Positions 7,968 through 58,444 of a stretch of 64,000 nucleotides of DNA are shown piece after piece. The DNA is from an uncultured Gammaproteobacteria bacterium (lineage in GTDB: Bacteria; Patescibacteriota; Microgenomatia; UBA8517). The translations under genes were made by a program, and so were the position numbers. The notes under the pieces were generated by a model, which saw nothing but the letters and a program-made list of their open reading frames with translations, was not told where the DNA came from and ran no database searches. Location of the stretch: the NCBI GenBank assembly GCA_964494885.1, contig CAZBTH010000002.1, positions 29,271 through 93,270 of the forward strand, written 5' to 3'. Numbering within the stretch: the stretch's first letter is position 1; each line of letters opens with the position of its first letter.

Positions 7968-8096
7968 TGTTTTTTTTGTTTTAGTATCTCCCCATTGCTT
8001 CATAAATATTGTTGAGGTAGAATCATTTAAGGCTAATTGAGCCTGTTTTTTATGTTCTTAATTATTAACTCTTAGTTATTAATTCTTAATTAACTT

Positions 8097-10724
8097 ATGG
8101 ATATCGGTAAAATTCAACAAACAGAGATAACCACAGAGCTTTCTAAATCATATTTGGATTACGCAATGAGCGTTATCGTTGCCCGAGCCTTGCCGGATGT
8201 ACGGGACGGACTTAAGCCGGTTCACAGGAGAATTTTATATGCAATGCATTTGATGGGACTTCATTTTGTAGGTTCTTCCACAACAAAATCTGCTAAGGTC
8301 GTTGGAGAAGTTTTGGGTAAATATCATCCACACGGAGACATGGCAGTCTACGACGCGATGGTTCGGCTTGCCCAAACCTTTTCGATGCGCTACCCCTTGG
8401 TCCATGGACAAGGAAACTTTGGGTCTGTTGATGGCGACCCGCCAGCAGCCATGCGTTACACCGAGGTTAAACTTGCCAAAATCGCGGACATGATGCTTGC
8501 GGATATGGAGAAAGAAACCGTAGACTTTACGGACAACTTCGACGCAACACTTAAAGAACCGGTTTTTCTTCCCGCAGTTTTACCCAATTTACTCCTTATG
8601 GGAAGCGAGGGAATCGCGGTCGGAATGGCAACAAAAATCCCTCCACATAATTTAACTGAACTTGTTGACGGAATATGCGCCATGATCAAAAAGGGTAAAG
8701 TTATTACCGAGCAAAAGGCACAGGAAGAACAAACAGATTTCGTTATCAAAAAGATCAATCTGGTAGCTTCAGGCGGGTCCAAAGCGTTAACTGAGGCGGA
8801 GGTTAATCCGACAGCAGTTTCTTTTGAAAGCGAAATTGATATTGACGAGCTCACCAATATTATTCCGGGCCCGGACTTTCCTACTGGGGGAGCAATTTAT
8901 GATGCCAACGGACTTAAAGAACTTTATGCAACAGGTCGCGGCAAAATAGTTGTCAGAGGAATTGCAGAAATTGTAGAGGGTGTTAAAGGTAAACAGCAAA
9001 TAATAATTAGTGAACTTCCGTATCAGGTCAATAAAAGTGAACTTGTAGCCAAAATTGCCGAACTTGTAAAAGATAAAAAGGTTGTAGGAATTGCAGATCT
9101 TAGAGATGAAAGCGATAAAGACGGTATGAGGGTGGCGATAGATCTCAAACGCGACGCAAAACCAAAATCTGTTTTGAATAATATTTTCAAACACACCAGA
9201 CTTCAAAGTAGCTTCCCTGCGAATTTTGTGGCACTTGTTGACGGCACCCCCCACACATTAAATCTCAAAACAATTCTGGTTGAATACGTTAAACATAGAC
9301 AAAGAGTGGTCATAAGACGTACCATCTTTGAGTTAACGGAGGCCAAAAAGCGAGCTCATATTTTGGAAGGGCTTAAAATCGCATTAGACAATTTAGATGC
9401 AGTAATCAAAACCATTAGAGAAAGTAAAACTCAGGAGGATGCAAAGAAAAACTTAATTGAAAGATTTAAATTGTCCGAAATCCAAGCAACCGCCATTTTA
9501 GATATGCAACTCAGACGCCTTGCGGCACTTGAGAGGGAAAAAATTGAGAAAGAATATGCAGAAATTAAGAAACTGATAGACCAACTTGTTGCGATCTTAA
9601 AAGACCCTAAGCAGGTTTTAAATATTATTGTTAAAGAACTTGGGGAGTTAAAAGAAAAATATGGTGATGCAAGACGAACAAAAATCTACAAAAACCCGCT
9701 CGGGGAAATCAGCGAAGAAGATTTGGTTGCCAAGGAAGAAACATTGATTACAGTCACAAAAACGGGTTATGTTAAACGTCTTTCTGCCACAAGTTACCGC
9801 GCACAGCGTCGGGGAGGGAAGGGTGTAATCGGAATGGCAACAAAGGAGGAGGATGAAATAGAACACATTCTATCGGCAACCACCCACGATACGATATTAT
9901 TCTTTACCAATAAAGGCCGTGTTTTCGGGCTAAAAGCATGGGAAATTCCTGAAAGCAGTAGACTGGCAAAGGGACAGGCCCTTGTTAACTTATTGAATCT
10001 TGAACAGGGTGAAGAAATAAAATCTATTTTACCGCTTTCAAAAGAAATGGGGATTAAAAATTTGGTAATGGCTACCAAAAACGGACTCATTAAAAAAACA
10101 AGTATCGATCAATTCGAAAATTTGAGGGCATCCGGGCTAATAGCAATCAAGCTTAGGGATAATGACATGCTCATTTCTGTTCACCCGACTACTGGCGACG
10201 ACCATATTATTCTTCTTACTCGGAACGCCAAGTCAATAAGATTTCCAGAGACAAATGCCAGGCCCATGGGTCGTGCCACAACCGGAGTCACGGGAATAAA
10301 GATGGACGCTGGGGATGAGCTGATTGGAATGGAAGTCTTCCCAGCAAAAGAAAATATCCCAGCTGACAAAAGGAAAAAGTTCTACCGCGATATTTTGACA
10401 ATTGCCGAGCACGGACTCGGGAAACGTACCCCAATTCATCTTTTCCCTATACAAAAAAGGTCTGGCAAAGGTGTTAAAGCGGCAGTGGTTTCAGCAAAAA
10501 CCGGGGATTTAAAAACAGCCGCAATGGTCACTGAAAAATTTGATCAGGTGATAATTACTTCAAAAATTGGGCAGGTGATTAAACTACCATTGAAAAATAT
10601 TCCCCAACTTGGAAGAGCTACGCAAGGAGTAATACTTATGCGCTTTGCGGATAAAGCAGATTCTGTTGCCGCAGCAGCTGTTTTGGAAAAAGGAGTAGAC
10701 GAAGAAGAAGAGGAAGAGGATTAA
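8097..10724 (+). CDS. gyrA: DNA gyrase subunit A
   Basis: [15 protein letters not shown] and YHPHGD motifs, AAMRYTE active-site Tyr, repeated C-terminal blades, acidic tail DEEEEEED. Confidence 0.95.
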
Positions 10725-10729
10725 CAAAT

Positions 10730-11388
10730 ATGGCTGATCGTGCAGACATAGACAAAAACATACTTCAAAATAAACCAAAACAAGAAGAAATCCCTTATAA
10801 ATTTCACGGCAACTACACAAAGGAGGAGCTTGGTGTTTTAGCTGATTTTATGCATGCCGAGTTCCCACATATTACATATGGGGGGGGAGAGATAGAAAAA
10901 TCATTATTGAAGTTCCACCGAAAGATATCTGCTCTTTTGATGAATGGAAACAAATTTTAGACACAGTTCTTGCTCCAGAAATAAAAACATTTCACCCAAC
11001 TATTAGAAGAAATCAGGAAATCATTGTTCGTTTTGTGAATAAACTCTGGGACAGAAACAATGCTCTAGAATCAGGTGGAACCGGCATGGGTCACAATGAT
11101 GAGCATTGGTTTCGACTATCAATAAATGGCAAAAGTAAAGAAGATTTAACTTTTTGTTTGATGCACGAACTTGTTGAATATGATTTTTGGGAAAAAACGA
11201 AACCTGGCGACACTGAAGCCGAAGTCAAATCTACAGACGAAATTAATGCTTTCAAAGCAGATGATCTAACTTACCAGAACTTACTTGACGAGAAAATTGC
11301 TAACCGAAGAGCTTTAAAAGCGGTTAGAAGAATGTGGCCTTTTGCTCATTTTGATAATCCGGACATGATCTATGGCGAAGACAAATGA
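10730..11388 (+). pseudogene. Hypothetical protein gene interrupted by a frameshift at a G8 homopolymer (10880-10887). The ORFs at 10730-10960 and 11035-11388 are one gene if a G is added
   Basis: Frame 1 is open with no start codon from 10801 to 11034 and overlaps the frame-2 ORF across the G8 tract; with G9 there is a continuous 219-codon ORF. Confidence 0.5.
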
Positions 11389-11390
11389 AT

Positions 11391-11420
11391 AACCACCAGC
11401 TTACGCAGGTGGTTTCTTCT
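11391..11420 (+). terminator. Hairpin AACCACC-N10-GGTGGTT after the 11035-11388 ORF
   Basis: 7-bp stem followed by a TCTTCT run; weak T-tract. Confidence 0.3.
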
Positions 11421-11599
11421 AACCCGATTAACTAAAGTTAATCGTCCTCGCATAGAATGCTCGGAAAATCTTCATCGCACTTGCTTACGCAAGTGGTTTA
11501 ACCGATTTGTAGTTATAAAAAGATCGCATAATTCCCCCTCTGAGTTCAGCTTCATTTATTTTTTCAAAGCTTAACTTTTTCCTACCTCCATCCTCAAAT

Positions 11600-11625
11600 A
11601 CTATAATAATATATATTATTATAGT
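11600..11625. repeat. Perfect 26-bp A/T-only palindrome ACTATAATAATATATATTATTATAGT, 7 bp downstream of the yerC-like stop
   Basis: The reverse complement is identical; a second copy (24 of 26 identical) lies at 12085-12110. Confidence 0.8.
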
Positions 11626-11631
11626 TAGAGG

Positions 11632-12078
11632 TTAAATTTTTTTAATAAATCTTTTAATTTTTCTATCCCTTTCCAAAATTGGCTTTCGATATACTTCACC
11701 AGTTAGGGTCCTCTTTTTCTGTGAGAATATTCCCAATATTTCTTCAATTAAAGCCATACCCAAATCTGAATTAGCTATATTTTCCGCTACTTTTTTTACA
11801 GCCCCATTACCGTATTTTATCTTCAAGCTCATTTTGTTGATAGTATTGGGGGTTACCCGTAAAATATTTGATATATTTTCGTAAATATTTCCTTTTTCTA
11901 AAAGTACGGCAATTGCCAACCTTTTAGCAAGTATTGTTTTTTCGATAGGGGATAAGAAATCATTCAAAAAGTTAATTATTTCTTTTTTATTTCTAAATTT
12001 AATTAGTGTATTTTCCAGAAGATCATAAATTCTTTGATCTACTTCTGGTCTCAATCTTATTTTCGAAACCTGTGTCAT
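11632..12078 (-). CDS. TrpR-like DNA-binding protein, YerC/YecD family
   Basis: LSPIEKTILAKRLAIAVLL...NISNILRVTPNTINKMS matches the TrpR/YerC helix-turn-helix core; a paralog lies at 20398-20844. Confidence 0.65.
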   Translation of the reverse strand: MTQVSKIRLRPEVDQRIYDLLENTLIKFRNKKEIINFLNDFLSPIEKTILAKRLAIAVLLEKGNIYENISNILRVTPNTINKMSLKIKYGNGAVKKVAENIANSDLGMALIEEILGIFSQKKRTLTGEVYRKPILERDRKIKRFIKKI

Positions 12079-12084
12079 ATGTTT

Positions 12085-12110
12085 ACTATCTTAATATATA
12101 TTATTATAGT
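12085..12110. repeat. Second copy of the 26-bp palindrome (ACTATCTTAATATATATTATTATAGT), 6 bp upstream of the yerC-like start; contains a TATAAT
   Basis: 24 of 26 identical to 11600-11625. Confidence 0.75.
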
Positions 12111-12194
12111 AAAACACAGAAAGTCAAACAACAACTAAACTAGCAATCAACTAATTGCAAACAATATAAATTTGATTTAATATAGTATTAACTT

Positions 12195-12959
12195 ATGGAA
12201 GAAAAGAAAACTATTCCGCCACAAGCAAACTCCGCAGGGGCAGTAATAATATTTTTTATTCTTCTTTTTGTTTTCGCCAAGTGGGGACCGGCAATTAATT
12301 TTTCGACAACGTCGCAATCAAAAGGTGAGCCGTTTGTTGTAAGCGGGGAGGGAAAGGTCTCGGTAACACCAGATGTCGCGAAAATCACCTTTGGTATTCA
12401 GGAGAACGGACAATCCCTGAAACAAGTTCAGGGTGAAGTAAACACTAAATCTAAAACCTTGACCGCCGCAGTTAAAAAGCTGGGCATTGCCGACAGCGAT
12501 ATTAAAACTACCTCATACAATGTCTACCCTCAATATGATTACACAAATTCAAACCAAAAAATAACCGGATACCAAGTTTCCACTGATTACCAGATCACCG
12601 TCAAAGACTTCGACAAAGTAAATGAGGCTATTGTCGTGGCCACATCGGCAGGGGCAAATATTATTGGAGGGGTTAGTTTTGAACTAGACGACTCCACAAA
12701 ATTAGAAAAAATGAACGAAGCCCGCACTAAAGCTGTTGCAGACGCCAAAACTAAAGCAGAGGGGTTGGCCAGTGCCGCAGGAATTTCTTTGGTAAAAATT
12801 ATAAATATTTCTGAAAATCAAAACCAGAATATCAGGCCTTTTGCATTTGCCGAAAAAGCAGTGAGCTTGGACACGGGAACACCTGCCGCCAAACCTGATA
12901 TCCAACCCGGCGAAACCGAAATCCAGTTAACTGTTTCCCTGTCTTACGAAATTAGATAA
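12195..12959 (+). CDS. SIMPL/DUF541 (YggE-like) periplasmic protein
   Basis: N-terminal TM helix; GEGKVSVTPD...ITGYQVS...VSFELDD pattern characteristic of the SIMPL family. Confidence 0.65.
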   Translation: MEEKKTIPPQANSAGAVIIFFILLFVFAKWGPAINFSTTSQSKGEPFVVSGEGKVSVTPDVAKITFGIQENGQSLKQVQGEVNTKSKTLTAAVKKLGIADSDIKTTSYNVYPQYDYTNSNQKITGYQVSTDYQITVKDFDKVNEAIVVATSAGANIIGGVSFELDDSTKLEKMNEARTKAVADAKTKAEGLASAAGISLVKIINISENQNQNIRPFAFAEKAVSLDTGTPAAKPDIQPGETEIQLTVSLSYEIR

Positions 12960-13000
12960 ACCTACCCCATAAACGCTCTTTAACTTGAAAGGAGAGCAAA

Positions 13001-13807
13001 GTGAAAAAACTTGTTCTTGCCCTTGTTCTGTTATTGATCACGTGCTTGCCAAGTAATACAGAAGTTGCCCCAACGACATTACCAACTAATACAGCACAGC
13101 CGATCTTAACATCAAGACCCAAGACGCAGACGCCAATCCCGAAACCAACTACAACTTCAACACCGTCACCTACACCACCACCTTCGCCAACACCAACCAT
13201 CAACACATACGTGGTTCAGCCGGGTGACACTCTGTGGGAAATCGCAAACCGTTTTGGAATAACCGTCGAATCACTTGCGCTAATAAATGACATTACCGAC
13301 CCAAGTTTGATATACCCGGGTCAGGTTTTGATCATAAGAGGCGACAAAGCCGGTGTAGAGCCGATTGCCCCCATACCCAACATGCTAAAAGGTAAAGAAA
13401 TTGTTGTTATGATACACACTCAACGAACTTACGCCTTTGAAGACGGATCCTTACTTAGAACATTCGTCGTTTCAACCGGAGTAGCCGCACATCCAACAAA
13501 AATCGGCAAGTTCAGAATCATGGTAAAACTTGATTTTGACGACATGACTGATAATCTAACCTATTATCTCCCAAAGGTCCCGTGGGTAATGTACTTCGGT
13601 AATGACGACGTTTCCTGGCAAGAAGGATACTCACTTCATGGAACTTACTGGCATCACAATTTTGGTGTACCAATGAGTCACGGATGTGTTAACTTAAGTA
13701 TCCCCAATGCGGAATGGCTATATAACTGGTCGGACCCATTGCCAACTGGAGGCGAAACCGACGCAACAGAAGCTAACCCGGGAACTATCGTATGGATAAT
13801 TCCGTGA
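13001..13807 (+). CDS. Lipoprotein with LysM and L,D-transpeptidase (YkuD) domains
   Basis: LLITC lipobox; Pro/Thr-rich linker; LysM ([17 protein letters not shown]); L,D-transpeptidase catalytic HG...SHGC motif. Confidence 0.8.
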
Positions 13808-13815
13808 GGAAGTGA

Positions 13816-13868
13816 AAAGGGAATCTTAATGATTTAAAAAGAATCAAAAGGTTCCCTTATTTTTTTAG
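13816..13868 (+). terminator. Rho-independent terminator candidate after the L,D-transpeptidase gene
   Basis: 11-bp stem AAGGGAATCTT / AAGGTTCCCTT with one G-U pair and a large loop, followed by TTATTTTTTT. Confidence 0.45.
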
Positions 13869-13911
13869 ATGGAAATAGTACTTGATTTTTATATTCCACT
13901 AAGTAAAATGG

Positions 13912-14010
13912 TCTTTATATCAAGAGGCGGCCAGGGACTAGCCCGATGACCCGCCAACAACCTCCTGAATTTAGTTCGGGAAAGGTGCTAAAACTAGAAC
14001 GATATGAAAA
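13912..14010 (+). promoter_or_regulatory. SAM-I (S-box) riboswitch in the metK leader
   Basis: TATCAAGAG-GCGGCCAGGGACTAGCCCGATGACCCGCCAACAACC matches the S-box core (UAUCAAGAG, AGGGACUGGCCCGAUGA, GCAACC) and GGTGCTAAAAC follows; the P1 3' strand GATATGAA includes the metK start codon. Confidence 0.8.
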
Positions 14011-15062
14011 ATATATTTTTAGATACTTTCAAAAATTACACTGTTGAATCCGTAACAAGCGGGCACCCCGATAAAATCTGCGACCAAGTTTCCGATGCTA
14101 TTCTGGATGAGTGTCTCCGTCAAGATCCCAAAAGTAGAGTTGCCATAGAAAGTTTTGGCGCGCACGGACTTTTTGTGATTGGCGGAGAAGTCACGACCAA
14201 TGCTAAGTTTGACGCAAAAAAAATTGCAGCCAGAGTTTACAAAGAAATAGGCCACCTTGATAAACTTAAATTTGTAACAAACATAATTAAACAATCCCCG
14301 GACATTGCCATGGGGGTAGATACAGGCGGGGCAGGGGACCAGGGCATTATGTACGGATTTGCGACTGACGAGACCCCCGAATATTTACCCAAAGCCGTTG
14401 CACTTGTTCACAAACTTACAAAAGGACTGGAAGACCTGAGAAGATCAAAAAAAATTAAATGGCTCCTCCCCGATGGCAAAGCCCAGGTCACAATAGAAAA
14501 TGGAAAAATCAAAACAGTTTTAGTTTCGGCACAACACAAGAAAGGTGTAAAGCTTGAACAAGTCCGCAAAGAAATTTCCGAAAAATTAATTAAAAAGCTT
14601 GTTCCTGGTATTAAAGACAAAAACATTTTGGTTAACCCTACAGGTAAATTTGAAGTCGGAGGGTTTATTGCCGATACGGGCTTAACCGGTAGAAAAATCA
14701 TGGTTGACTCTTACGGCGGTCTTATTCCACACGGCGGTGGAGCGTTTTCCGGAAAAGATCCTACAAAAGTGGACAGGAGTGGCGCCTACATGTGCCGATT
14801 TGTTGCTAAAAATCTGGTTGCAAAAGGCAAAGGCAAAAGTGTTCTGGTATCAGTTGCCTATGCTATCGGTAAAGCCGAACCTTTAATGGTCGATGCCAAA
14901 AACGAAAAGGGTAAAGATCTTTCAGACTACGTTAAAAAACATTTCGACTTTAAGCCCCTGGCAATTATCGAAAAACTAAAACTTAGAAGCCCCATTTATT
15001 CCCAAACCGCCGCCTATGGCCACTTCGGCAAAAAAGGCCTCCCTTGGGAAGAAATTGAATAA
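14004..15062 (+). CDS. metK: S-adenosylmethionine synthetase
   Basis: ESVTSGHPDKICDQVSDAILD N-terminus aligns to MetK; GGGAFSGKDPTKVDRSGAYMCR near the C-terminus. Confidence 0.9.
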   Translation: MKNIFLDTFKNYTVESVTSGHPDKICDQVSDAILDECLRQDPKSRVAIESFGAHGLFVIGGEVTTNAKFDAKKIAARVYKEIGHLDKLKFVTNIIKQSPDIAMGVDTGGAGDQGIMYGFATDETPEYLPKAVALVHKLTKGLEDLRRSKKIKWLLPDGKAQVTIENGKIKTVLVSAQHKKGVKLEQVRKEISEKLIKKLVPGIKDKNILVNPTGKFEVGGFIADTGLTGRKIMVDSYGGLIPHGGGAFSGKDPTKVDRSGAYMCRFVAKNLVAKGKGKSVLVSVAYAIGKAEPLMVDAKNEKGKDLSDYVKKHFDFKPLAIIEKLKLRSPIYSQTAAYGHFGKKGLPWEEIE

Positions 15063-15112
15063 ACTGTCTCACCCTCAAACTTTTAAAGCGATATAATTAA
15101 TATATAACTCCC

Positions 15113-16108
15113 ATGTCAGATTTTGATAAAAATGAGGGATTTTTACAACCAGCCGAACAGTACAAACCGTCTGTCAAATTTATCCAAATAAGACATTCCG
15201 ACAATGATGCGCCAAATGTCTGGTTAGAAGCAAAAAAAAACGATGTTATTTTACTTGAAGTTGGGGATCTAACAATACATGAACGAGAGGCTCGCGAAAC
15301 AGGTGCCAATAGTGTAGCTTCTTTAGAAGATCCTACAGAAAGAAAAAGAAAACTCGGTAATGCCTATTCAGATGGATCTTTCTTATCGCAAATCATGAAG
15401 GGTGCAATACTCGAAGGGAAAGAAATTCACTTTGTCGACATTCCAGAAAACCACGATACTAATAAAACTCAAAATGAGGAATTGAGTTACTTACAAAAAA
15501 GTTATGACTGCTTTTTTGAAGCCGATTTCAAAGGTTCATTATTACATCTCCGCAATTACATACTTGCCGATGGTGAGTCTGGTCAACTTCGAGAAAAAAT
15601 CGTAGTTTCTCAAATTGAAAATTTATTACAAAAAAATCAAACAAAATGGAAGAATAAATCTGTCTGTGTTATCCAGGGTATGAACCATGTTAAAAGTTAT
15701 CATATTTTCAAAAATAGAAACCCAGGGGTATCATCCTCACGTACTTTTTTGAATGGAAAGCGATTCTCTTTCTTACTTGAACACGAGGCACGACAAAGAT
15801 TAAATGCGGGTTCCAAAGAAGATCAAAAGTTATCTATTGAGCGCTTATTCATTTCTCGCCTAATTTTGCCGGCACTTATAACAGATGAAAATATCAATGA
15901 AAAAAATAAAAAAACGGATGAATTGGCCAGGATGATTGGTAGAGATGAAATCAACACTATTTTTAAAAAACTTACCGAAATACGAAGAGATGTGAAATCG
16001 GAACTCCACATGAATAACCCAGAATATATTAAAGCATACATTAATAAACGAGTTGAGCTTCTCGCACAACAAATATTAGAACAGCATCCTCTTTCGCAAA
16101 AAATTTGA
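15113..16108 (+). CDS. Hypothetical protein, paralog A of a tandem pair; possibly distant TraB/GumN/TIKI-like
   Basis: Clear paralogy to 16279-17322 (FIQIRHSD..DVILLEV and KWKNKSVCVIQGMNHVKSYHIF against FVQIEHAPEN..DVVLLEC and KWKNKTICVIQGQNHSRTYHIF); the GxxH motif and N-terminal pattern resemble TraB/TIKI, at low confidence. Confidence 0.5.
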   Translation: MSDFDKNEGFLQPAEQYKPSVKFIQIRHSDNDAPNVWLEAKKNDVILLEVGDLTIHEREARETGANSVASLEDPTERKRKLGNAYSDGSFLSQIMKGAILEGKEIHFVDIPENHDTNKTQNEELSYLQKSYDCFFEADFKGSLLHLRNYILADGESGQLREKIVVSQIENLLQKNQTKWKNKSVCVIQGMNHVKSYHIFKNRNPGVSSSRTFLNGKRFSFLLEHEARQRLNAGSKEDQKLSIERLFISRLILPALITDENINEKNKKTDELARMIGRDEINTIFKKLTEIRRDVKSELHMNNPEYIKAYINKRVELLAQQILEQHPLSQKI

Positions 16109-16185
16109 CCTCTGCTGTGATTGAACGAGCAATGCCGATTGGTAGACGCGTTAATGACCTCAATTAAGTCTAAAAACGTGGTGTC

Positions 16186-16227
16186 CACTTCGGCAAAAAA
16201 GGATTGCCTTGGGAAGAAATTGAGTAA
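16186..16227 (+). pseudogene. Remnant of a metK 3' end (encodes HFGKKGLPWEEIE-stop)
   Basis: 39 coding nt plus stop aligned to 15024-15062 with 4 nt differences, all synonymous; an in-frame TAA lies 4 codons upstream, so it is a fragment only. Confidence 0.6.
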
Positions 16228-16278
16228 CTTTTCCTTCCTCAATGACTATTAAAGAGATACAATAGTTGTGTATATATT

Positions 16279-17322
16279 ATGGAGTTATTTGACAGATTGA
16301 ACATACCATTATTAAAAAGGGCACAGGAATCCAGAGTGAGATTTGTGCAAATTGAACACGCTCCTGAAAACGCAACCAAGATCTGGGAAGAGGCGAGAAA
16401 ATACGACGTTGTTTTACTTGAGTGTACAAACGTTTCGGAAAAACGACGAGTCGATCTTGAAAATACGATAAACAAAGTATCGTCACTAGAAACACGGTCT
16501 CAAAGAGAGAAAGTTCTCGGAACCGTCTTCTCAGGAAAAGAATTTGACAATCAAATAATTAGAAGTTTAATCCTTGAAGGTAAAGAGTTCCATTATATCG
16601 ATGTTTTTGACAATGACGAAGCGAACACACTACGCAGAGAATCAAGGACGCTAAGGAAACTGGAAACTGATTATTTTTGTCAAGGTAAATTTGATCTTTC
16701 GTTTGTCTATTCTAAAAAAGCCACCATCGCTAGAGCCCATAGTGATTTTGCAAGAGAAGAAGTAGTTTCAAAACAAATAGAGGATCTAAGAACCAAATCG
16801 TCGAAAAAATGGAAAAATAAAACTATATGTGTTATACAAGGTCAAAATCACTCTCGAACTTATCATATATTCAAAAGGGATTACCCCTCGGTAGAATCTT
16901 CGAGAACATTTCTTGAAGACGACGTGTTTGTCTTCTCCCTCACAACCGAGGCTAAAAATCGCCTCCTAGCTGGATCACCAGAAAGTCGAGAAATTGCTTT
17001 CAAAAGGTCATTTATTGCACAAAATGTTTTGTTTCCACGGTCGGACAGCGACCAAGATATCGGAGAAAGAATAGAAATATCTGACAAAATTGCCAGAAAT
17101 CTATCTACAACCGAAATTGACGAGATATTTACTAGTCTAACAATGATCCAACAATTTATTCGGGAAAATTTTAGCAATATGCCAGACTTGGCCACATTTT
17201 ATGCTTTAAAACATGCTGAAATTTTAGGTCGACAGATAATCGAAAAACACCCACTTTTTCCCGAAAATTCGACACAAGTAGTATGTCATCCTCCCCGCCA
17301 TTCTGGCTGGGTAGCCGTCTAA
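16279..17322 (+). CDS. Hypothetical protein, paralog B of the tandem pair
   Basis: Collinear similarity to 15113-16108 along most of its length. Confidence 0.5.
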   Translation: MELFDRLNIPLLKRAQESRVRFVQIEHAPENATKIWEEARKYDVVLLECTNVSEKRRVDLENTINKVSSLETRSQREKVLGTVFSGKEFDNQIIRSLILEGKEFHYIDVFDNDEANTLRRESRTLRKLETDYFCQGKFDLSFVYSKKATIARAHSDFAREEVVSKQIEDLRTKSSKKWKNKTICVIQGQNHSRTYHIFKRDYPSVESSRTFLEDDVFVFSLTTEAKNRLLAGSPESREIAFKRSFIAQNVLFPRSDSDQDIGERIEISDKIARNLSTTEIDEIFTSLTMIQQFIRENFSNMPDLATFYALKHAEILGRQIIEKHPLFPENSTQVVCHPPRHSGWVAV

Positions 17323-17401
17323 ACGAGGATGACATATCAGCGTTCAATTCATCCGCGGGCTCATCGCCCTTGGTTTTCTTGAATGCTGTTATAATATATC
17401 C

Positions 17402-19120
17402 ATGCCTGAACAAACCGAAGTACTCGATGCTTACGAAGAAAAGTGGGGTGAATATAGTGAACCTGCCGAGCGCGGCGGGGGAAGAGGCAAACGCCCCAAA
17501 AACGGCCCCACCAAAAGCCAGGAGGCTTCATCTGCGGAAGAGAACGCAAGGCTTGCGCGTGAGCGCCAGGAGTTCGCTGAAAACCAGATCTTGGAATACG
17601 TTGATACCACCTGGAAAAGCTTCAAAGAGGAAGATCGGCCTAAAAAAATCGCTGAATACGCAAGATGGATGGAAAAGGCCGCCAAACAAAGAGAGTTTAA
17701 AATTGACACAAATGAAGTAAGGTTTAAATCTAAATTATCAAGCGGCAACGGTGGTCAAAATGTTCAAAAAAATGAAACCGCCATAGATGCTAAACATATT
17801 CCAACTGGACTTAGATCCGGCTCTCAGGACGAAACTAGCCAGCTACACAACAAACAAGTCGCACTTCAAATATTAACATTGAATATTAAATCTCAACTTA
17901 AACTCTGGAAAGAAACATCAAAAGAATTCAGGAAAAAATTAATGCACCCCGAAGAGTCCGAAAAATTCGAAACCGGTTTTGTGCCACTTCCCGAAGGAGT
18001 AACAATCGACAGCCTCAGGGCGCAAGTGCCGCCATCAGAAGAACTAACCGTTATGTTTGGTTGGGAAGGTGATATCGATGGTAAGCCCAAAAGCGCCACA
18101 GTCGCCGGTGAAAATTTTTATTTATATCCCGCAATAGAATACCGGGTAAATTATAATTCATCCCAAAATGGCGATGTCTACATGAACCCAGTTGACCTAA
18201 AAAGTGGCGCACCGGAAGTTTCCGATATCCCGGCCGCTCTTGATATACATTTGGCATCAGGAAAGGGTAGGCAGACATCATGCATTAATATTTCTGCTAA
18301 AAGTTCGGATGGGAAAATATCAAAAGCTATCGGTAAAATTCAAATGGGAATTGAAAGGTTGCAGGATATTGACAGACTCAAGACTTTTGCCCAAGAATAT
18401 TACCAATCGAATCTTGCGACCGATCTGAAAACAATAAAAGAAGCATTAGACATTACCACTTTTCAAGAAGGGTCCCGTGCAGACCAAATAATATACCGCC
18501 AAGCCTGGCTAATATTCGAAAGTGAGTTTTACATAAGATTAGATGAAAACAGGAATACAGACAATCTAAAGGAACTAATGCAAGACTCCCTGATTCAATA
18601 TATGGAGCAAATTAAAGATATTTTAGAAAACAGACCGACAGAATTAATTAATATAACCGACGACCCAAATAGCATAGTTATACATTTTGACACTATCCCA
18701 ACCGACTTAAGCGACCCGGATCATGGTCTTATTGTACTGACAACTTATATTCCGAACCGCGGTTGGACCGTAATGGCCCCAATTGGTGATTGCCCAAATT
18801 TTGCAGCCTACATGCTCAAGGATTTTGCCACCGGCCCGAACAAAGAAAACCAAGCATCAATATTTGCGTATTCATTTCAAACTGCGAAAGAGAGCGGAGA
18901 ATTGGACATTTTAAACGGCGGTAAAACATTATTGTTTAAAAACTTATCGGACCTTAATCCCTACATGGCCGTTTTTCATAGCGACGACCACACCCTCAAA
19001 ATGGCTTTAGAAACTCTCAGGGTTGCAGGGGATCCGGTTCTCGGAGAGGATACCTTTAATTTTATTATCTATAAAAAGAGCGAGGTTGTTCCTGAAATTT
19101 TATCCTTAGATTTGACATAA
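17402..19120 (+). CDS. Large hypothetical cytoplasmic protein (572 aa) with a charged, low-complexity N-terminus
   Basis: Long uninterrupted ORF with no recognisable motifs; follows the paralog pair. Confidence 0.5.
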   Translation: MPEQTEVLDAYEEKWGEYSEPAERGGGRGKRPKNGPTKSQEASSAEENARLARERQEFAENQILEYVDTTWKSFKEEDRPKKIAEYARWMEKAAKQREFKIDTNEVRFKSKLSSGNGGQNVQKNETAIDAKHIPTGLRSGSQDETSQLHNKQVALQILTLNIKSQLKLWKETSKEFRKKLMHPEESEKFETGFVPLPEGVTIDSLRAQVPPSEELTVMFGWEGDIDGKPKSATVAGENFYLYPAIEYRVNYNSSQNGDVYMNPVDLKSGAPEVSDIPAALDIHLASGKGRQTSCINISAKSSDGKISKAIGKIQMGIERLQDIDRLKTFAQEYYQSNLATDLKTIKEALDITTFQEGSRADQIIYRQAWLIFESEFYIRLDENRNTDNLKELMQDSLIQYMEQIKDILENRPTELINITDDPNSIVIHFDTIPTDLSDPDHGLIVLTTYIPNRGWTVMAPIGDCPNFAAYMLKDFATGPNKENQASIFAYSFQTAKESGELDILNGGKTLLFKNLSDLNPYMAVFHSDDHTLKMALETLRVAGDPVLGEDTFNFIIYKKSEVVPEILSLDLT

Positions 19121-19147
19121 CCCCATATCTAAAGTTATATTTACTAT

Positions 19148-19549
19148 ATGGCCAAAGGGTTTGTCCAAAATTTAGAAGAATTAACAGCGCAAAATTCCAA
19201 CTTCAGAAAAGTAATATATACCGCAAAACATTCCCAATTGGTTTTGATGTGCCTTAAACCGAACGAGGAAATTGGGATGGAAAACCACCTGGATAATGAC
19301 CAATTTTTAAGAATCGAGAGCGGGGAAGGGAAAGCCATAATTGACGGAAACGAACAGACTTTTAGCACCGGATGGTGTGTGGTGGTTCCTGCAGGTTCCC
19401 AACACAACATAATTAATACTTCGGCCACCAGTGAACTCAAACTCTACACAGTCTATTCTCCCGCCCATCACAAAGACGGAACAGTCCACGAAACAAAGGA
19501 AATAGCCATGTCTTCAGAGGAGGACTTTGACGGAGTTACTTCAGAATAA
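19148..19549 (+). CDS. Cupin-domain protein
   Basis: Cupin_2-like beta-barrel pattern (EIGMENH...LRIESGEG...VVVPAGSQHNIINTS). Confidence 0.6.
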   Translation: MAKGFVQNLEELTAQNSNFRKVIYTAKHSQLVLMCLKPNEEIGMENHLDNDQFLRIESGEGKAIIDGNEQTFSTGWCVVVPAGSQHNIINTSATSELKLYTVYSPAHHKDGTVHETKEIAMSSEEDFDGVTSE

Positions 19550-19559
19550 GAACTAAAAA

Positions 19560-19826
19560 TTAATTCCCAAACTCTCTACTTACCGGCAAGACACTTTGTT
19601 CTTGCTTTGTTTTTATCTTGATTAATAAAGCCTCAAGGGCTTCACCTGTAAGTGCTTGCCCCTCAACAGATTCACCACATTTTGGACACACAATCGAATC
19701 GTCAACCACCTTACCCTGGTAGCCACAACTAAAGCACTCAATGTCATGTGTAGCCCTACTCATGTCGTTATTGTACTCTAGGTTGTCAAATTTTGAAACT
19801 ACTGGTATTTTCAATTTATGACACAC
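19560..19826 (-). CDS. Small zinc-ribbon protein
   Basis: CFSCG...CPKCG double CxxC. Confidence 0.4.
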   Translation of the reverse strand: MCHKLKIPVVSKFDNLEYNNDMSRATHDIECFSCGYQGKVVDDSIVCPKCGESVEGQALTGEALEALLIKIKTKQEQSVLPVSREFGN

Positions 19827-19845
19827 TGAGTTAAAATACCTTATT

Positions 19846-20316
19846 ATGGTAATGGACCCCGAAGCAATTCAAGAAAACTTTGAATCTGACATGTACCAAA
19901 CGAAACGCCCTTCACTACCAGTTAGGGGCAAGGGGGCCGAAAGGCTAAGGATATACGAGACCGAAAAAGCCGAACAAGCAATTCAAAAACATGTACACTT
20001 TTTGGAATCGGATCAAAACCCAAAAACACGACAGGAAAAACTAGGCAAGTATTGGGGATGGGTCAATGAATGTATGAGAATGCGATACCTCCCCCAAACA
20101 GAAATTGAAGATTTTGAGATTTCTCAGACAGAAAACACAGTTACGGTACTTCACAAACCGTCACAATTGTCATCAACGTTTTCCGGAGCCAAAGACCAGC
20201 ACGAGAATGAGAAGGGTGCATACGAACGAATTTGGGGAATTCTCGAAGATCACAGAGATGCATGGAAACACAGGGTTTCCAAAAAATTCAAGGCAAGACA
20301 CAAAGTTATAAGTTAA
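19846..20316 (+). CDS. Hypothetical protein
   Basis: ORF only; start uncertain because only 19 bp separate it from the divergent upstream gene. Confidence 0.35.
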   Translation: MVMDPEAIQENFESDMYQTKRPSLPVRGKGAERLRIYETEKAEQAIQKHVHFLESDQNPKTRQEKLGKYWGWVNECMRMRYLPQTEIEDFEISQTENTVTVLHKPSQLSSTFSGAKDQHENEKGAYERIWGILEDHRDAWKHRVSKKFKARHKVIS

Positions 20317-20351
20317 TTAAATATTTTAGTTCTCTTACCAACTGTCTACAA

Positions 20352-20379
20352 TACTTTAATGATCTAGATCGTTAAAGTA
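20352..20379. repeat. 28-bp near-palindrome TACTTTAATGATCTAGATCGTTAAAGTA, 18 bp downstream of the second yerC-like gene
   Basis: Palindromic apart from one T/G position; the GATCTAGATC core is repeated in inverted form at 20853-20876. Confidence 0.7.
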
Positions 20380-20397
20380 TTTGCAGCAAAACTAGCC

Positions 20398-20844
20398 CTA
20401 GATTCCCTTCTTAAAACGGCTGATGTTTTTATTTCTTTGAAACACTTTTTTGTGATATTCACTTAAGGGTAAACCTTTTATTGGAATATTGAACATGCTT
20501 TGGATTTCCTCCCAAATTATTCTGGCCGAATCCCGCTTTAAAACATTCCCAACCACTTCATTCGTTCCCTTTTCTCCATACTTTATATGCAAATTCATTT
20601 TGGCAATCGTCGCCGTGGTAACATGCAAGATCCTTTTGATTTCCTCGTAACTGTTTCCTTTTGCCAAAAGTACTGCCAAAGCAAATCGTTTTGCCAACAT
20701 TATTTTTTCGGTAGGGGATAAGAAGTCATTTAGAAATATATCAAATTTCTCTTTGTTTTTGATTGAAAGAAGCGATTCACTAAAGAGGTTGAATATCCTA
20801 TCCCAAACTTCCGGTCTTAATTTAAACCTCGAAACCATTGTCAT
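20398..20844 (-). CDS. TrpR-like DNA-binding protein, YerC/YecD family (paralog 2)
   Basis: LSPTEKIMLAKRFALAVLLAKGNSYEEIKRILHVTTATIAKMN; same length and collinear with 11632-12078. Confidence 0.65.
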   Translation of the reverse strand: MTMVSRFKLRPEVWDRIFNLFSESLLSIKNKEKFDIFLNDFLSPTEKIMLAKRFALAVLLAKGNSYEEIKRILHVTTATIAKMNLHIKYGEKGTNEVVGNVLKRDSARIIWEEIQSMFNIPIKGLPLSEYHKKVFQRNKNISRFKKGI

Positions 20845-20852
20845 ATTAATAG

Positions 20853-20876
20853 TATATTGATCTAGATCATTAAACT
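20853..20876. repeat. Palindromic site TATATTGATCTAGATCATTAAAC, about 8 bp upstream of the second yerC-like start; includes a TATACT -10-like hexamer on the minus strand
   Basis: Shares TTTAATGATCTAGATC, in inverted orientation, with 20352-20379. Confidence 0.65.
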
Positions 20877-21004
20877 AAATGGGCTTAAAAAATCGTGATT
20901 ATTTATTAGGACATCAGCAGATGGTATCCGACAAAAATTCTAAAAAAGAATTTTCAGGTTAAGGTATTCTAGAAATTAAAGATTCTAATACCATCAAGTA
21001 AATA

Positions 21005-21649
21005 TCAAATATCAACCAATGGTTCCTTACTGTCTTTTACAAAGGCTTCATCGATTCTTTGCATTCCAATAAGATCCGGTTTAACCCTGATTAAATCTCC
21101 TCGTATAATACGATCTAAATATTTTTCTTTCAATGTTTCACTAAAAAGTTCAAATTCGCTATGGGGATCTGGATCACTCGGCTTAGGTTTAACAAAATGT
21201 CCAAATACATGCTCCCCATCTATTGTTGCATGAATGATGGGGTGTGCTGTGTTTGTTAGTTTATAAACAATCTCGACATCAGTAAACAACTCTGCACACG
21301 CAACGGCAAATAAAAAGGATGGTAACTTACAATCACGCCGCTCGGAATTATCAAGCTCCCGTACCTGCCCTCCTATTGTATTACATCCAGAGCGACGATC
21401 TTTAAACTGATAGTCAATTCCAACTTCTCGTCCTAGGTTCTCAAAAGTTTGTTTTTTGTAGTCTTCTGCAATATAACTTTTCGCATAAGCATGGGCGATG
21501 CCTTGCGCCTTAGAAAAATCTTCCACGGTACTTATTGGTAGCTCTCGAGGAATCCCAACCTTGTCTCTAGAATGTAGTCTGCGCACTCTTGTATATCCTC
21601 CATATTCCGTTCCCTCTTCAGCCCCCATGTTACTTTTCTCCTCTCCCAT
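21005..21649 (-). CDS. Hypothetical protein overlapping the recombinase gene by 20 bp and probably co-transcribed with it
   Basis: 214-aa ORF with no recognisable motifs. Confidence 0.45.
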   Translation of the reverse strand: MGEEKSNMGAEEGTEYGGYTRVRRLHSRDKVGIPRELPISTVEDFSKAQGIAHAYAKSYIAEDYKKQTFENLGREVGIDYQFKDRRSGCNTIGGQVRELDNSERRDCKLPSFLFAVACAELFTDVEIVYKLTNTAHPIIHATIDGEHVFGHFVKPKPSDPDPHSEFELFSETLKEKYLDRIIRGDLIRVKPDLIGMQRIDEAFVKDSKEPLVDI

Positions 21650-22661
21650 GGAATTGTTCGTGAATATCTCTTAATTGTTTATTGGTCACATGTGTATAAA
21701 TCTGAGTTGTAGAAATATTTTTGTGTCCCAACATCTCTTGTACCGAACGAATATCCGCCCCGGCGTTTAATAAATCAGTTGCGAAACTGTGTCTCATGAC
21801 ATGAGGCGTGACTTCCATCGGCATTTTCATTTTATGAGAATACTTTTTTATCATTCTCTGGACCGAGCGGGGAGTGAGTCTCATTTTTTCATCCGGCGTG
21901 GCCGGATCAGACTTCCCTTTGTGATGAATGAAAAGGGGTTTGTAGTGATCGCGCCTTTCATTTAAATATTTAATTAACCAATCAGTTGCACGGCTGGAAA
22001 GAAACACTACCCGAGCCTTTCCACCTTTTCCCACAATCCCGAATTCTTTTGTATCAAGGTTTACTTTGTCACGGTCAAGTTTGGTAAGTTCCGAAACACG
22101 AAGGCCTGTAGAAAATAAAACTTCCAAAATCGCTTTGTCCCGCTTACCCTGAATAGAATCTTGTGAGGGAGCATTCAGCATTCTGTCGACTTGCTCACCA
22201 CTTAAAAATTTTACCTGCCGTTCTTCCACCTTAGGCAAATCAATTTTATCCGGAGCCATAGCCTGAAAATCATTCCTAATAAGCCATTTAAGAAAACTTC
22301 TAAGAGCAATAACATGATAACTCTGAGTGCGGCGTCCCATTAGGTGACCATTTTCCCCAGGCAGGGTTGTTAAAAAAACTCTAAAACTCCTTACAATGTC
22401 CTGATTGATATCAATTATGTTTTCCCGGATTCCCTGAGATTCCATCCATAAAATAAGTCTGGATAAATAATGTCTGTAATTCCGAAGGGTTAGGGGAGAG
22501 GCGCCACGTTCTACCTGGAGATATTCCAAAAAGTCTTCAACCTTCTGAGCAATCTCTGAATTGTTAATTTGAGCAGACTGACTGTTTGCGAAACCCCTAC
22601 GAAGCCTTGGCGTAGTAGGGTTTGCAATTTCGCTTTGATTGATCGGTGCATTATCAACCAT
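21630..22661 (-). CDS. Tyrosine site-specific recombinase (XerC/XerD-like / phage integrase family) with a roughly 40-aa N-terminal extension
   Basis: EDFLEYLQVERGASPLTLRNYRHYL N-terminal SAM-like domain; catalytic R...HVMRHSFAT...LGHKNISTTQIYTHV (R-H-R-Y). Confidence 0.85.
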   Translation of the reverse strand: MVDNAPINQSEIANPTTPRLRRGFANSQSAQINNSEIAQKVEDFLEYLQVERGASPLTLRNYRHYLSRLILWMESQGIRENIIDINQDIVRSFRVFLTTLPGENGHLMGRRTQSYHVIALRSFLKWLIRNDFQAMAPDKIDLPKVEERQVKFLSGEQVDRMLNAPSQDSIQGKRDKAILEVLFSTGLRVSELTKLDRDKVNLDTKEFGIVGKGGKARVVFLSSRATDWLIKYLNERRDHYKPLFIHHKGKSDPATPDEKMRLTPRSVQRMIKKYSHKMKMPMEVTPHVMRHSFATDLLNAGADIRSVQEMLGHKNISTTQIYTHVTNKQLRDIHEQFHGRGEK

Positions 22662-22734
22662 AAAAAAGATACTTAATACTAAGATATTAAGATACTAAGG
22701 GCGGAGTGTCAATAACATTGTGCGACATTAACTA

Positions 22735-36980: not shown

Positions 36981-36982
36981 TT

Positions 36983-37013
36983 GACAGGGTGCGACCCTGT
37001 CTGTCTTATCTTA
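36983..37013 (+). terminator. Rho-independent terminator (GACAGGGT-GCG-ACCCTGTC followed by a T-rich run)
   Basis: Perfect 8-bp stem, 3-nt loop, then TGTCTTATCTT. Confidence 0.55.
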
Positions 37014-37019
37014 TAATAC

Positions 37020-37048
37020 TTGACAAGCGCTAAAAGGTGTGATATCAT
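37020..37048 (+). promoter_or_regulatory. Sigma-70-type promoter TTGACA-N17-(TGa)TATCAT reading into the ORF-free region
   Basis: Consensus -35, 17-bp spacer, extended -10. Confidence 0.45.
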
Positions 37049-37532
37049 TCCCAAGTTGGATTTAATCCAGCACTCGCACATTTAATATCAGTTCGCAAGG
37101 CGCTTACGGGCCGCAACTTGCCAACCATTTATTGGTTGGCAGCTTTCGGTTCGCAAGTGTCATGCGGGAACTCGGTTGAAAAACCCTGTTCAACGTGGGC
37201 GGTGCCTACGTTTCAAAACCGGCAATGCGCGTTGCCTCCTTGACAGATGTATCGCCCAGCGATCATCTTAAAGCAGCCTCAACATGAGGTTTGGCAATAG
37301 CTAGTCCGTGATGCAGATCATTGACCTTGAGTAGGCCACCTGTTGTCTATCCATTATTTTTTGGAGAAACAGACTCCGGCTTACTGGCTTTGATTTTGCA
37401 TTTTGACGCTTGCGAACCGTTTTTTTAATAATTTCTAGGGGAAAGGACTGGATTCCTCTCTCAGATGTGTTTTGACCAATTTGCGGTCATTGCTTTCTGA
37501 GCTCAAAGAATCCTATTTATCCCCCTTTTATC

Positions 37533-37600
37533 CGAGCCCAGTTTTGGACTGAAACAACAAACATTTTTTTATATTGTTGTTTCTTTTCAGACTGGGCTCG
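37533..37600 (+). repeat. About 68-nt long imperfect hairpin / inverted repeat (CGAGCCCAGT ... ACTGGGCTCG with paired inner arms)
   Basis: 10-bp outer stem plus CTGAAA/TTTCAG and CAACAA/TTGTTG inner pairings around an A/T loop. Confidence 0.6.
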
Positions 37601-37640
37601 CTTACTTTTAGAGCCTAAATTTATCAAATAAATCCTTATT

Positions 37641-37668
37641 TGTTCTACTGTTCTAGAACAATAGAACA
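37641..37668. promoter_or_regulatory. 28-bp near-palindrome TGTTCTACTGTTCTAGAACAATAGAACA (four AGAAC/GTTCT half-sites), directly upstream of a promoter
   Basis: Perfect 12-bp core TGTTCTAGAACA; outer half-sites at 8-bp spacing; -35 TTGACA at 37677-37682 and -10 TATATA at 37699-37704. Confidence 0.5.
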
Positions 37669-37950
37669 CTTCAAATTTGACATAAAGATCAATGTTGTTA
37701 TATACTTCCCACAGTTAAATAAATCCGTTTGCATTGGAGTCACGATCCAAAATCCTCCTTCGCTAAAGCTACGGAAGGAGAACGGAGCCTCACAAAATTG
37801 AGGACGCAGGTCGAAGCGTAAGCAAAGCTTGGCGAATCCAAGCCCCGCTAAAAAAGAAGACAACCATTGTCATCCTGAGCAAATCGAATGGATAGAGATG
37901 GACCAAGAGATCAGTTCGCGCAAGCGGATTGGTAACAAAGAATGGGACCG

Positions 37951-38046
37951 CGGAGGTCGGAAGACCCTCGTTTCTTAAGCGAAGTTTAATGCTGAATTTA
38001 TTTCAGCATCTAAGGTACTTGGCTTGATGAACGAGGGTTTTTTGGT
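37951..38046 (+). terminator. Terminator (CCCTCGTT ... AACGAGGG plus T6) ending 9 nt before the 38055 start codon, with an overlapping alternative GNRA-capped hairpin (CGGAGGTC-GGAA-GACCCTCG): candidate attenuator or riboswitch expression platform
   Basis: 8-bp stem enclosing the sub-hairpin ATGCTGAA/TTCAGCAT, then TTTTTT; the upstream hairpin shares the CCCTCG strand, so the two structures are mutually exclusive. Confidence 0.45.
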
Positions 38047-38054
38047 GAAAAAAT

Positions 38055-58394: not shown

Positions 58395-58444
58395 ATCTAA
58401 TATGCTAATATGTTACATATTTGTAACATATACTAACACCTGTG

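Follow-up and report, generated by a model that had tools for sequence, protein, structure and literature searches.

In Escherichia coli, the TrpR protein controls its own gene by way of a palindromic operator at the trpR promoter; a 3′ operator is not known for E. coli TrpR. YerC of Bacillus subtilis is the TrpR-family repressor HisR, which depends on histidine and has a 20-bp operator with the consensus cACTTTA-N6-TAAAGTg; in vitro binding was validated for one site of Ruminococcus gnavus, and about half of the hisR genes have a site of their own upstream, indicating autoregulation (PMC9413887). Here we describe a gene for a TrpR/HisR(YerC)-like DNA-binding protein that lies between two copies of a 26-bp palindrome in a 64-kb stretch of contig CAZBTH010000002.1 (the whole stretch of 64,000 nucleotides is called the window below). 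The host is an uncultivated groundwater bacterium of the Candidate Phyla Radiation (CPR), or Patescibacteria, and is Woesebacteria-like. The gene is called paralog 1, and a second gene of the same family in the window is called paralog 2. As judged from sequence comparison, the palindromes of paralog 1 are most likely the binding sites of the encoded protein itself.

In phage lambda, the operator regions OR and OL bracket cI-rexA-rexB, and a long-range loop tunes the autoregulation of CI. The REP-associated tyrosine transposases (RAYTs) are HUH nucleases flanked by their cognate REP (repetitive extragenic palindromic) sequences, and the REPs are dispersed in hundreds of copies. In lacI, the operator O3 at the 3′ end of the gene roadblocks the gene's own transcript when looped to O1, and the truncated protein products are SsrA-tagged and degraded (PMC3711431). 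The locus described here resembles each of these systems in part. As in lambda (for the looping context see PMC3708714), a repressor gene would lie between two operator regions of its own product, although the lambda operators are tripartite, are 2.4 kb apart, and belong to another protein family and a phage setting. The likeness to RAYT/REP is that the gene is bracketed by palindromes which its product is predicted to recognize and that paralogs differ in palindrome, whereas the protein described here has the fold of a plain helix-turn-helix (HTH) repressor, and the sites are found almost solely beside the gene. The likeness to LacI O3 is that a repressor's predicted operator is located at the 3′ end of its own gene. 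LacI differs, however, in having no operator at its own promoter, in that O3 is primarily an auxiliary operator of lacZYA, and in belonging to a different protein family, whereas here both gene ends carry a site and the arrangement is family-wide; a roadblock and a loop are candidate mechanisms here.

The features of the paralog-1 locus, in window positions, were as follows.

11600-11625, palindrome without strand: downstream (3′) palindrome of paralog 1, ACTATAATAATATATATTATTATAGT, perfect, 26 bp; proposed auxiliary operator.
11632-12078, minus strand: paralog-1 gene for a TrpR/HisR(YerC)-like DNA-binding protein of 148 amino acids, called from the open reading frame (ORF) and Pfam PF01371.
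12085-12110, palindrome without strand: upstream (5′) palindrome of paralog 1, ACTATCTTAATATATATTATTATAGT, 24 of 26 positions identical to the downstream copy; proposed primary operator.
12100-12127, minus strand: promoter-like element of paralog 1, TTGACT (12127-12122), 16 nt, AATAAT (12105-12100), from consensus match only.

Direct reading of the sequence confirmed the initial annotation in its central point, that the gene is placed between two copies of a 26-bp palindrome, the 3′ copy being perfect and the 5′ copy matching it at 24 of 26 positions. The upstream copy lies 6 nt (12079-12084) ahead of the ATG (12076-12078), as had been stated. The gap between the stop codon (11632-11634) and the downstream palindrome was also 6 nt (11626-11631) and not the 7 bp first given, and the palindrome was not composed of A and T only, positions 2 and 25 being C and G. 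The inverted repeat of the downstream copy continues into its flanks (CCTC...GAGG). With up to 3 mismatches allowed, the palindrome had these 2 matches in the window and none besides, and 0 matches in 100 dinucleotide-preserving shuffles; 24-bp palindromes with at least 11 of 12 pairs occurred 4 times in the window vs 0-1 in the shuffles. No further copy of the palindrome of either paralog was found in about 82 kb of the contig (the window plus about 18 kb walked). Both paralog-1 copies recur identically in independent ENA, JGI and Logan assemblies (loci are given numbers with the prefix L; here L001-L004 and L007).

The encoded protein matched the Pfam family Trp_repressor (PF01371) over residues 20-97 with 38.5 bits (gathering cut-off 27) and an E-value of 1.2e-9. 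Against TIGR02531, the YerC/YecD equivalog, it scored 34.5 bits, under the NCBIfam cut-off of 42.2. The nearest solved structures were the HisR/YerC-type entries 3FRW, 3G1C and 3KOR (PDB profile matches, E about 1e-12), and the similarity to E. coli TrpR was marginal (profile E about 0.7). The AlphaFold2 model had a predicted local distance difference test score (pLDDT) of 80 overall and above 90 over residues 11-100, and its Foldseek target-normalised TM-score (TMt) was 0.77-0.82 to 3FRW/3KOR/3G1C and 0.65-0.71 to E. coli TrpR. The predicted structure is thus a TrpR-like all-helical fold, with the putative HTH near the C-terminus of the domain. The TrpR-like domain covers approximately residues 11-103, and residues 105-148 form a family-specific C-terminal extension of about 45 amino acids, which had low model confidence and is basic and conserved across the family. 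The protein has the HisR fold, HisR-type proteins are its closest sequence relatives, and the sites, like HisR operators (PMC9413887), are palindromes with half-sites of the ACTTTA/TAAAGT type, but HisR proteins are shorter than about 110 amino acids and single-domain, whereas the members of the Patescibacteria family have about 145-150 amino acids with the C-terminal extension. E. coli TrpR belongs to the same family, but its operator consensus differs.

The second gene of the family is located 8.7 kb from the first, with the following features.

20353-20378, palindrome without strand: downstream palindrome of paralog 2, ACTTTAATGATCTAGATCGTTAAAGT; the inverted repeat extends to 20350-20381.
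20398-20844, minus strand: paralog-2 gene, 148 amino acids, same family, 47% identical to paralog 1.
20851-20876, palindrome without strand: upstream palindrome of paralog 2, AGTATATTGATCTAGATCATTAAACT on the plus strand, about 21 of 26 positions identical to the downstream copy.

The palindromes of paralog 2 differ in sequence from those of paralog 1, each gene having its own type on both sides. The upstream copy of paralog 2 ends 6 nt ahead of the ATG, its gene-proximal arm being the -10-like hexamer TATACT, with 6 nt between it and the ATG. The distance from the stop codon to the downstream site was 19 nt to the 26-mer and 16 nt to the extended repeat. Several paralogs in one genome, private sites, and a second site past the stop codon also set the Patescibacteria genomes apart from those with HisR. 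In the HisR control locus (L142, Blautia; a single locus from one genus), a Shine-Dalgarno sequence and a classical terminator were found, with no bracket.

The arrangement was surveyed in 80 homologous loci from species-representative genomes, which gave 77 usable genes from Woese-, Gottesman-, Levy-, Curtiss-, Davies-, Roizman- and Shapirobacteria, Parcubacteria and Saccharibacteria. For a bracket score, the 100 nt preceding the ATG were compared without gaps with the 100 nt that follow the stop codon, and the best match was taken, with a threshold of at least 14. This threshold was reached in 57/77 loci compared with 3.7% of mismatched locus pairs (median score 18 vs 8), the opposite of what the initial annotation had allowed for, namely that relatives lack flanking palindromes. 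The matching segments were palindromes that varied by locus, for example ACTTCAATGATATATATCATTGAAGT, TGTTATCATGTTCTAGAACATGATAACA, GGTAAAGTGGTTTGAACCACTTTACC, ACTACGATATATCGTAGT and ACTTCGATTAATCGAAGT. The centre of the upstream palindrome was 15-25 nt before the ATG (mode 19), and that of the downstream palindrome was 14-22 nt after the stop codon (mode 16). The 3′ copy was not a significantly better or longer palindrome than the 5′ copy (Wilcoxon p=0.16). The family comprised 1,614 clusters at 50% identity (E up to 1e-10).

Both sites belong to the bracketed gene, as shown by their proximity to it. The downstream palindrome was closer to the family gene than to the neighbour in 34/34 loci with a gap of at least 40 nt (medians about 22-25 nt vs 95-117 nt), and the upstream palindrome was closer to the family gene in 43/43 loci. 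The downstream neighbour was convergent in 46/76 loci, and the bracket was present with a convergent neighbour in 32/46 loci and with a co-directional one in 24/30. Across the 77 loci no conserved partner was found among the neighbouring genes, which were unrelated housekeeping genes; his genes were found near none of these loci, and none was called in the parts of the contig that had gene lists. In the ortholog L008, the order SIMPL, paralog-1 ortholog, gyrA was retained; inheritance of the loci is vertical. Both palindrome copies of L008 carry the same departures from the window sequence, which indicates that the two copies changed in concert.

The recognition helix of the protein was found to go with the sequence of the sites. 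Helices of the type xGT were paired with the inner palindrome ATGATTCGAATCAT, [LVA]TT..ASVN with ATGATTTAAATCAT, VGLETV with GTTCTAGAAC, SKPTIA with GGTTTGAACC, and SPSTV.RF with CGATATATCG. With the rest of the protein controlled, operator distance and recognition-helix distance were correlated (partial Mantel r=0.27, p about 5e-4). In addition, the palindromes flanking L063 and L073 (CACTTTAATTAATTAAAGTG) equal the HisR consensus exactly, and those of L085 do so nearly. In the window the outer arms, ACTTTA and ACTATA, echo the HisR half-sites, but the spacer is 14 bp instead of 6 bp, and most Patescibacteria sites are likewise 26 bp with the arms 14 bp apart. The family has two site classes of 18 bp and 26 bp, which differ by 8 bp; the tandem dimer binding of E. 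coli TrpR (title of PDB 1TRR) may bear on this difference. The earlier proposal that an HTH protein regulates itself through two operators of its own gained good support from the bracket of paralog 2, the 57/77 bracketed loci, the helix covariation and the exact HisR motif in some members, the binding itself being inferred. With each paralog matched to its palindrome pair, and with protein and sites apparently diverging together, the genes would constitute private repressor-operator pairs.

The context of the two copies differed. In the consensus scan, the -10 element and the expected start site of paralog 1 fell within the upstream palindrome. The TATAAT that had been suggested as the probable -10 is possible, but the scan preferred TTGACT-16-AATAAT. 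No Shine-Dalgarno sequence was found before the ATG of paralog 1, nor any G-rich signal ahead of the family genes, and a near-leaderless geometry is possible for paralog 1 (GATAGT, 6 nt, ATG). As a general property of the family this geometry was rejected: a -10-like hexamer exactly 6 nt from the ATG was the commonest spacing, yet it was seen in only 11/57 loci, and it stays a possibility for the window genes alone. TTGAC motifs aimed at the gene were found upstream of the 5′ copies in 13 cases, compared with at most 2 in each of the other three contexts, which ties the 5′ copy, unlike the 3′ copy, to a promoter. In paralog 1 the upstream palindrome also faces a divergent gene: on the plus strand (12082-12195), TTTACT-17-TATAGT points towards a SIMPL-domain gene (12195-12959). 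The same divergent pairing is present in L008, and the SIMPL gene may be co-regulated.

That the palindromes are the cognate operators of the protein and serve its autorepression appears likely. Binding of the protein to the upstream copy would shut off the transcription of its own gene, the copy overlapping the -10 and the start-site region, and may also affect the SIMPL-domain gene at 12195. The downstream copy goes with the 3′ end of the repressor gene and not with the neighbour, and it would probably be an auxiliary operator. Protein bound at the 3′ site may stall RNA polymerase when it reaches the stop codon or shortly ahead of it, in the manner of Lac repressor at O3, may bridge to the 5′ site over about 485 bp and thereby strengthen repression, or may do both. 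A roadblock would be at least as plausible as looping; each of these specific roles is possible rather than probable. In paralog 1, and in most loci with a site up to 6 nt past the stop codon, the RNA of a stalled polymerase would end before the stop codon. In its most complete form the proposal describes a large repressor family that only Patescibacteria have, with more than 1,600 clusters at 50% identity, in which the 5′ operator would occlude initiation and the 3′ operator would roadblock the transcript, many mRNAs would end before the stop codon and become trans-translation substrates like those from lacI O3, and the sites would co-evolve with the recognition helix to give several orthogonal units per genome; taken as a whole, this is offered tentatively and is rather doubtful.

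Several observations weigh against these proposals. About a quarter of the 77 loci had no clear bracket. The converse of the helix correlation was also significant, that is, operator distance against the rest of the protein with the helix controlled, so that the covariation is confounded by shared ancestry. One TrpR-type dimer could not contact a 26-bp site in the fashion of HisR, since the arms are 14 bp apart and not 6. For the 3′ copy in particular, the centre-to-centre distances between the operators were 441-564 bp, mostly 475-503 bp, with no convincing 10-11-bp periodicity, a result that is uninformative rather than negative, and an RNA end before the stop codon would not be general, because the paralog-2 site lies 16-19 nt past the stop. 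Solitary palindromes with no family gene within reach were also found in other contigs and imply either wider regulons or another factor that reads the sites. These came from a metagenome scan with the paralog-1 core, which returned 50 loci: 6 were orthologous bracketed genes, a few were unrelated (an ArsR operator, DNA of very low GC), and about 25 were solitary intergenic palindromes of 26-28 bp in CPR-like contigs, often just before or after assorted genes.

The solitary copies also speak for the alternative that the palindromes are sites of another factor or generic intergenic punctuation, for example binding sites of a nucleoid protein, the core of a symmetric bidirectional promoter, or a repeat element, and would have no more than a tendency to lie beside the family genes. 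Such copies (cACTAT..ATAGTg, 26-28 bp) stand in intergenic gaps beside assorted housekeeping genes of other contigs, the outer arms resemble pieces of -35 and -10 elements (ACT ... TATAGT) at the 26-bp span, and in some loci (L075 and L039, described below) successive genes are set off from one another by 3-4 copies. On the other hand, the distinct palindrome of each paralog is found only on both sides of that gene and nowhere else in the 82 kb, -35-like motifs accompany the upstream copies only, and some members have sites identical to the motif that was validated in their nearest characterised relatives. The many unrelated sites in the same genome that a generic element would have, as considered in the initial annotation, were not seen over this distance; solitary copies of the type are present in contigs of other organisms. 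We regard this alternative as unlikely.

The downstream copies are located where terminators sit, and as RNA they fold into extended hairpins of -14.4 (paralog 1) and -17.7 kcal/mol, with z values of -3.7 and -2.9, as would be expected if the palindromes acted as transcript hairpins, namely a terminator or stabiliser at the 3′ end and a translational block at the 5′ end. However, the stems are AT-rich with no U-tract, the consensus scan found 0 terminator-like sites in 11300-12300, and the 8 nt after the 3′ palindromes contained a mean of 2.4 T, equal to background (56 loci). The upstream copy of paralog 2 folded no better than shuffles (z -0.16), and, judged from the promoter-like elements, transcription would start within the upstream palindrome or beyond it. 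Moreover, a role as RNA would need neither identical sequence at the 5′ and 3′ sides nor tracking of the recognition helix. Rfam gave nothing at gathering scores, nor at relaxed thresholds around the paralog-1 locus. An intrinsic (Rho-independent) terminator was rejected, there being no G+C-rich stem with a U-tract and no T-run after the 3′ palindromes, and transcript hairpins of any kind are a very unlikely explanation. In the 240-nt gap downstream of paralog 1, two similar hairpins were observed at 11395-11420 and 11478-11500 (CCACCAGCTTACGCAGGTGG, CACTTGCTTACGCAAGTG). The first looks like the terminator of a convergent gene of 117 amino acids, and two minus-strand ORFs of 27 amino acids that overlap these hairpins are probably not genes.

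A site-specific recombination module, also raised in the initial annotation, would make the palindromes recombination sites, either of Xer (dif-like) or of another tyrosine recombinase, and would make the gene a cassette of the pdif or IMEX (integrative mobile elements exploiting Xer) type that can be excised or inverted. The sites are similar to those of dif/Xer and pdif/IMEX in being AT-rich, about 26-28 bp long, with a 6-bp centre, and in flanking a short segment. In its core (AATAA-TATATA-TTATT), the paralog-1 palindrome is similar to the inner arms of dif, and the match noted earlier to the B. subtilis dif was verified, the central 12-mer AATATATATTAT being contained in the sequence printed in PMC3025954. 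A XerC/D-type integrase gene (21630-22661, minus strand) lies about 0.8 kb from paralog 2 and directly upstream of the paralog-2 orthologs in L009 and L014. The surroundings are terminus-like, with a peak of the cumulative GC skew at about 8-18 kb and gene orientation changing from mostly plus to mostly minus near 19.5 kb; the region of about 8000-22700 looks like a replication terminus, in a 64-kb window that is too short to place one.

In contrast to this, dif is a single-copy site of 28 bp, conserved across genomes, palindromic in its inner arms only and with distinct XerC and XerD outer arms (PMC3025954), whereas the window has two copies each of two different palindromes within 9.3 kb, 26 bp long and symmetric over their full length. 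Two paralogs only 8.7 kb apart have different palindromes, and the palindromes vary widely across relatives, while the integrases of the window and L009 are 97% conserved. In every case the bracketed gene is of the same family with no variable cargo, its neighbours are unrelated housekeeping genes, and the integrase is adjacent in only 4 loci. Active recombination between the repeats is disfavoured, because orthologs at 55% protein identity hold their position and both sites; synteny was seen in L008, L009 and L014. Plasmid, phage and viral collections yielded no homologs, and a search for mobile, phage or defence context gave one weak PHROG match of no known function (E 0.003) and no PADLOC match. 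Two further signs, an enrichment of metagenome matches at contig ends and a 126-bp stretch common to L105 and L128, were considered as recombination breakpoints and rejected; breaks made by assemblers at perfect palindromes explain them better, since L005 and L006 also end at the perfect copy. A dif- or pdif-like module is thus highly improbable, the sites being symmetric, two per gene and paralog-specific, the cargo constant and the loci syntenic between species.

Returning to the reading of the palindromes as operators of the bracketed gene, copies at other places were also recorded. In L075 (1441-3551) and L039 (2428-3458), 3-4 locus-specific copies occur in consecutive gaps ahead of NUDIX, membrane-protein and transporter genes, so that some family members probably regulate further genes, although the window paralogs show no extra sites. 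In arrays of this kind the downstream copy may be the operator of the next gene; as the general case this was rejected, with 46/76 neighbours convergent and the site always hugging the family gene. In L120, an unrelated contig without a family gene, a solitary palindrome of the paralog-1 type (8320-8345) occupies the gap between a hisF-like gene, 7 nt upstream of it, and a hisI-like ORF, 10 nt downstream of it; both were called by eye from the N-terminal sequences. This palindrome hints that some relatives may keep a HisR-like histidine regulon. In L105 (1320-1432, and likewise in L124; lake metagenome), a phosphoglycerate kinase gene carries an in-frame insertion of about 85 amino acids, with a perfect and a degenerate palindrome of the paralog-1 type 87 nt apart, followed by NSREGF-like tandem repeats.

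Other elements were noted within the window. A near-perfect 28-bp palindrome, TGTTCTACTGTTCTAGAACAATAGAACA, is located at 37641-37668 in a gene-free gap of 1.07 kb (36981-38054); its core (GTTCTAGAAC) is the operator core of L021 and L026, with no family gene nearby, and a third paralog encoded outside the window may have its orphan operator here. The same gap contains a long near-perfect hairpin at 37528-37610, for which Rfam gave only a spurious miRNA match, possibly a small RNA or a terminator. The palindrome ATATGTTACATATTTGTAACATAT at 58408-58431 lies directly upstream of an ArsR/HTH_5 gene of 98 amino acids (L140 5380-5676) and looks like an ordinary single autoregulatory operator, in contrast to the two-sided bracket. 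A S-adenosylmethionine (SAM) riboswitch (RF00162, 57.5 bits) was found at 13914-14008, directly upstream of the S-adenosylmethionine synthetase gene at 14004-15062.

Both the protein family and palindromic operators for autoregulation belong to known kinds. No description of a gene-between-two-operators architecture in Patescibacteria/CPR was found in the searchable literature, which likewise gave no account of the two-sided bracket, the 3′ operator anchored at the stop codon, the greater length of the protein or the several private pairings of protein and site in Patescibacteria. The layout of a gene between two sites across the family points to an undescribed design of self-regulation. If the protein does not bind these sites, the strict bracket needs another explanation, which would be stranger still. 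The bracketed repressor family is abundant in CPR bacteria, in which, most of them being uncultivated, hardly anything has been characterised of how transcription is regulated; as each member shows its probable binding site twice in the genome, specificity can be read without experiments. A conserved operator past the stop codon, if true, would be a general and testable form of 3′-end autoregulation, which so far is mainly the single case of lacI O3, and the many diverged protein-palindrome pairs would be an orthogonal repressor set for studying and engineering DNA recognition by the TrpR fold.

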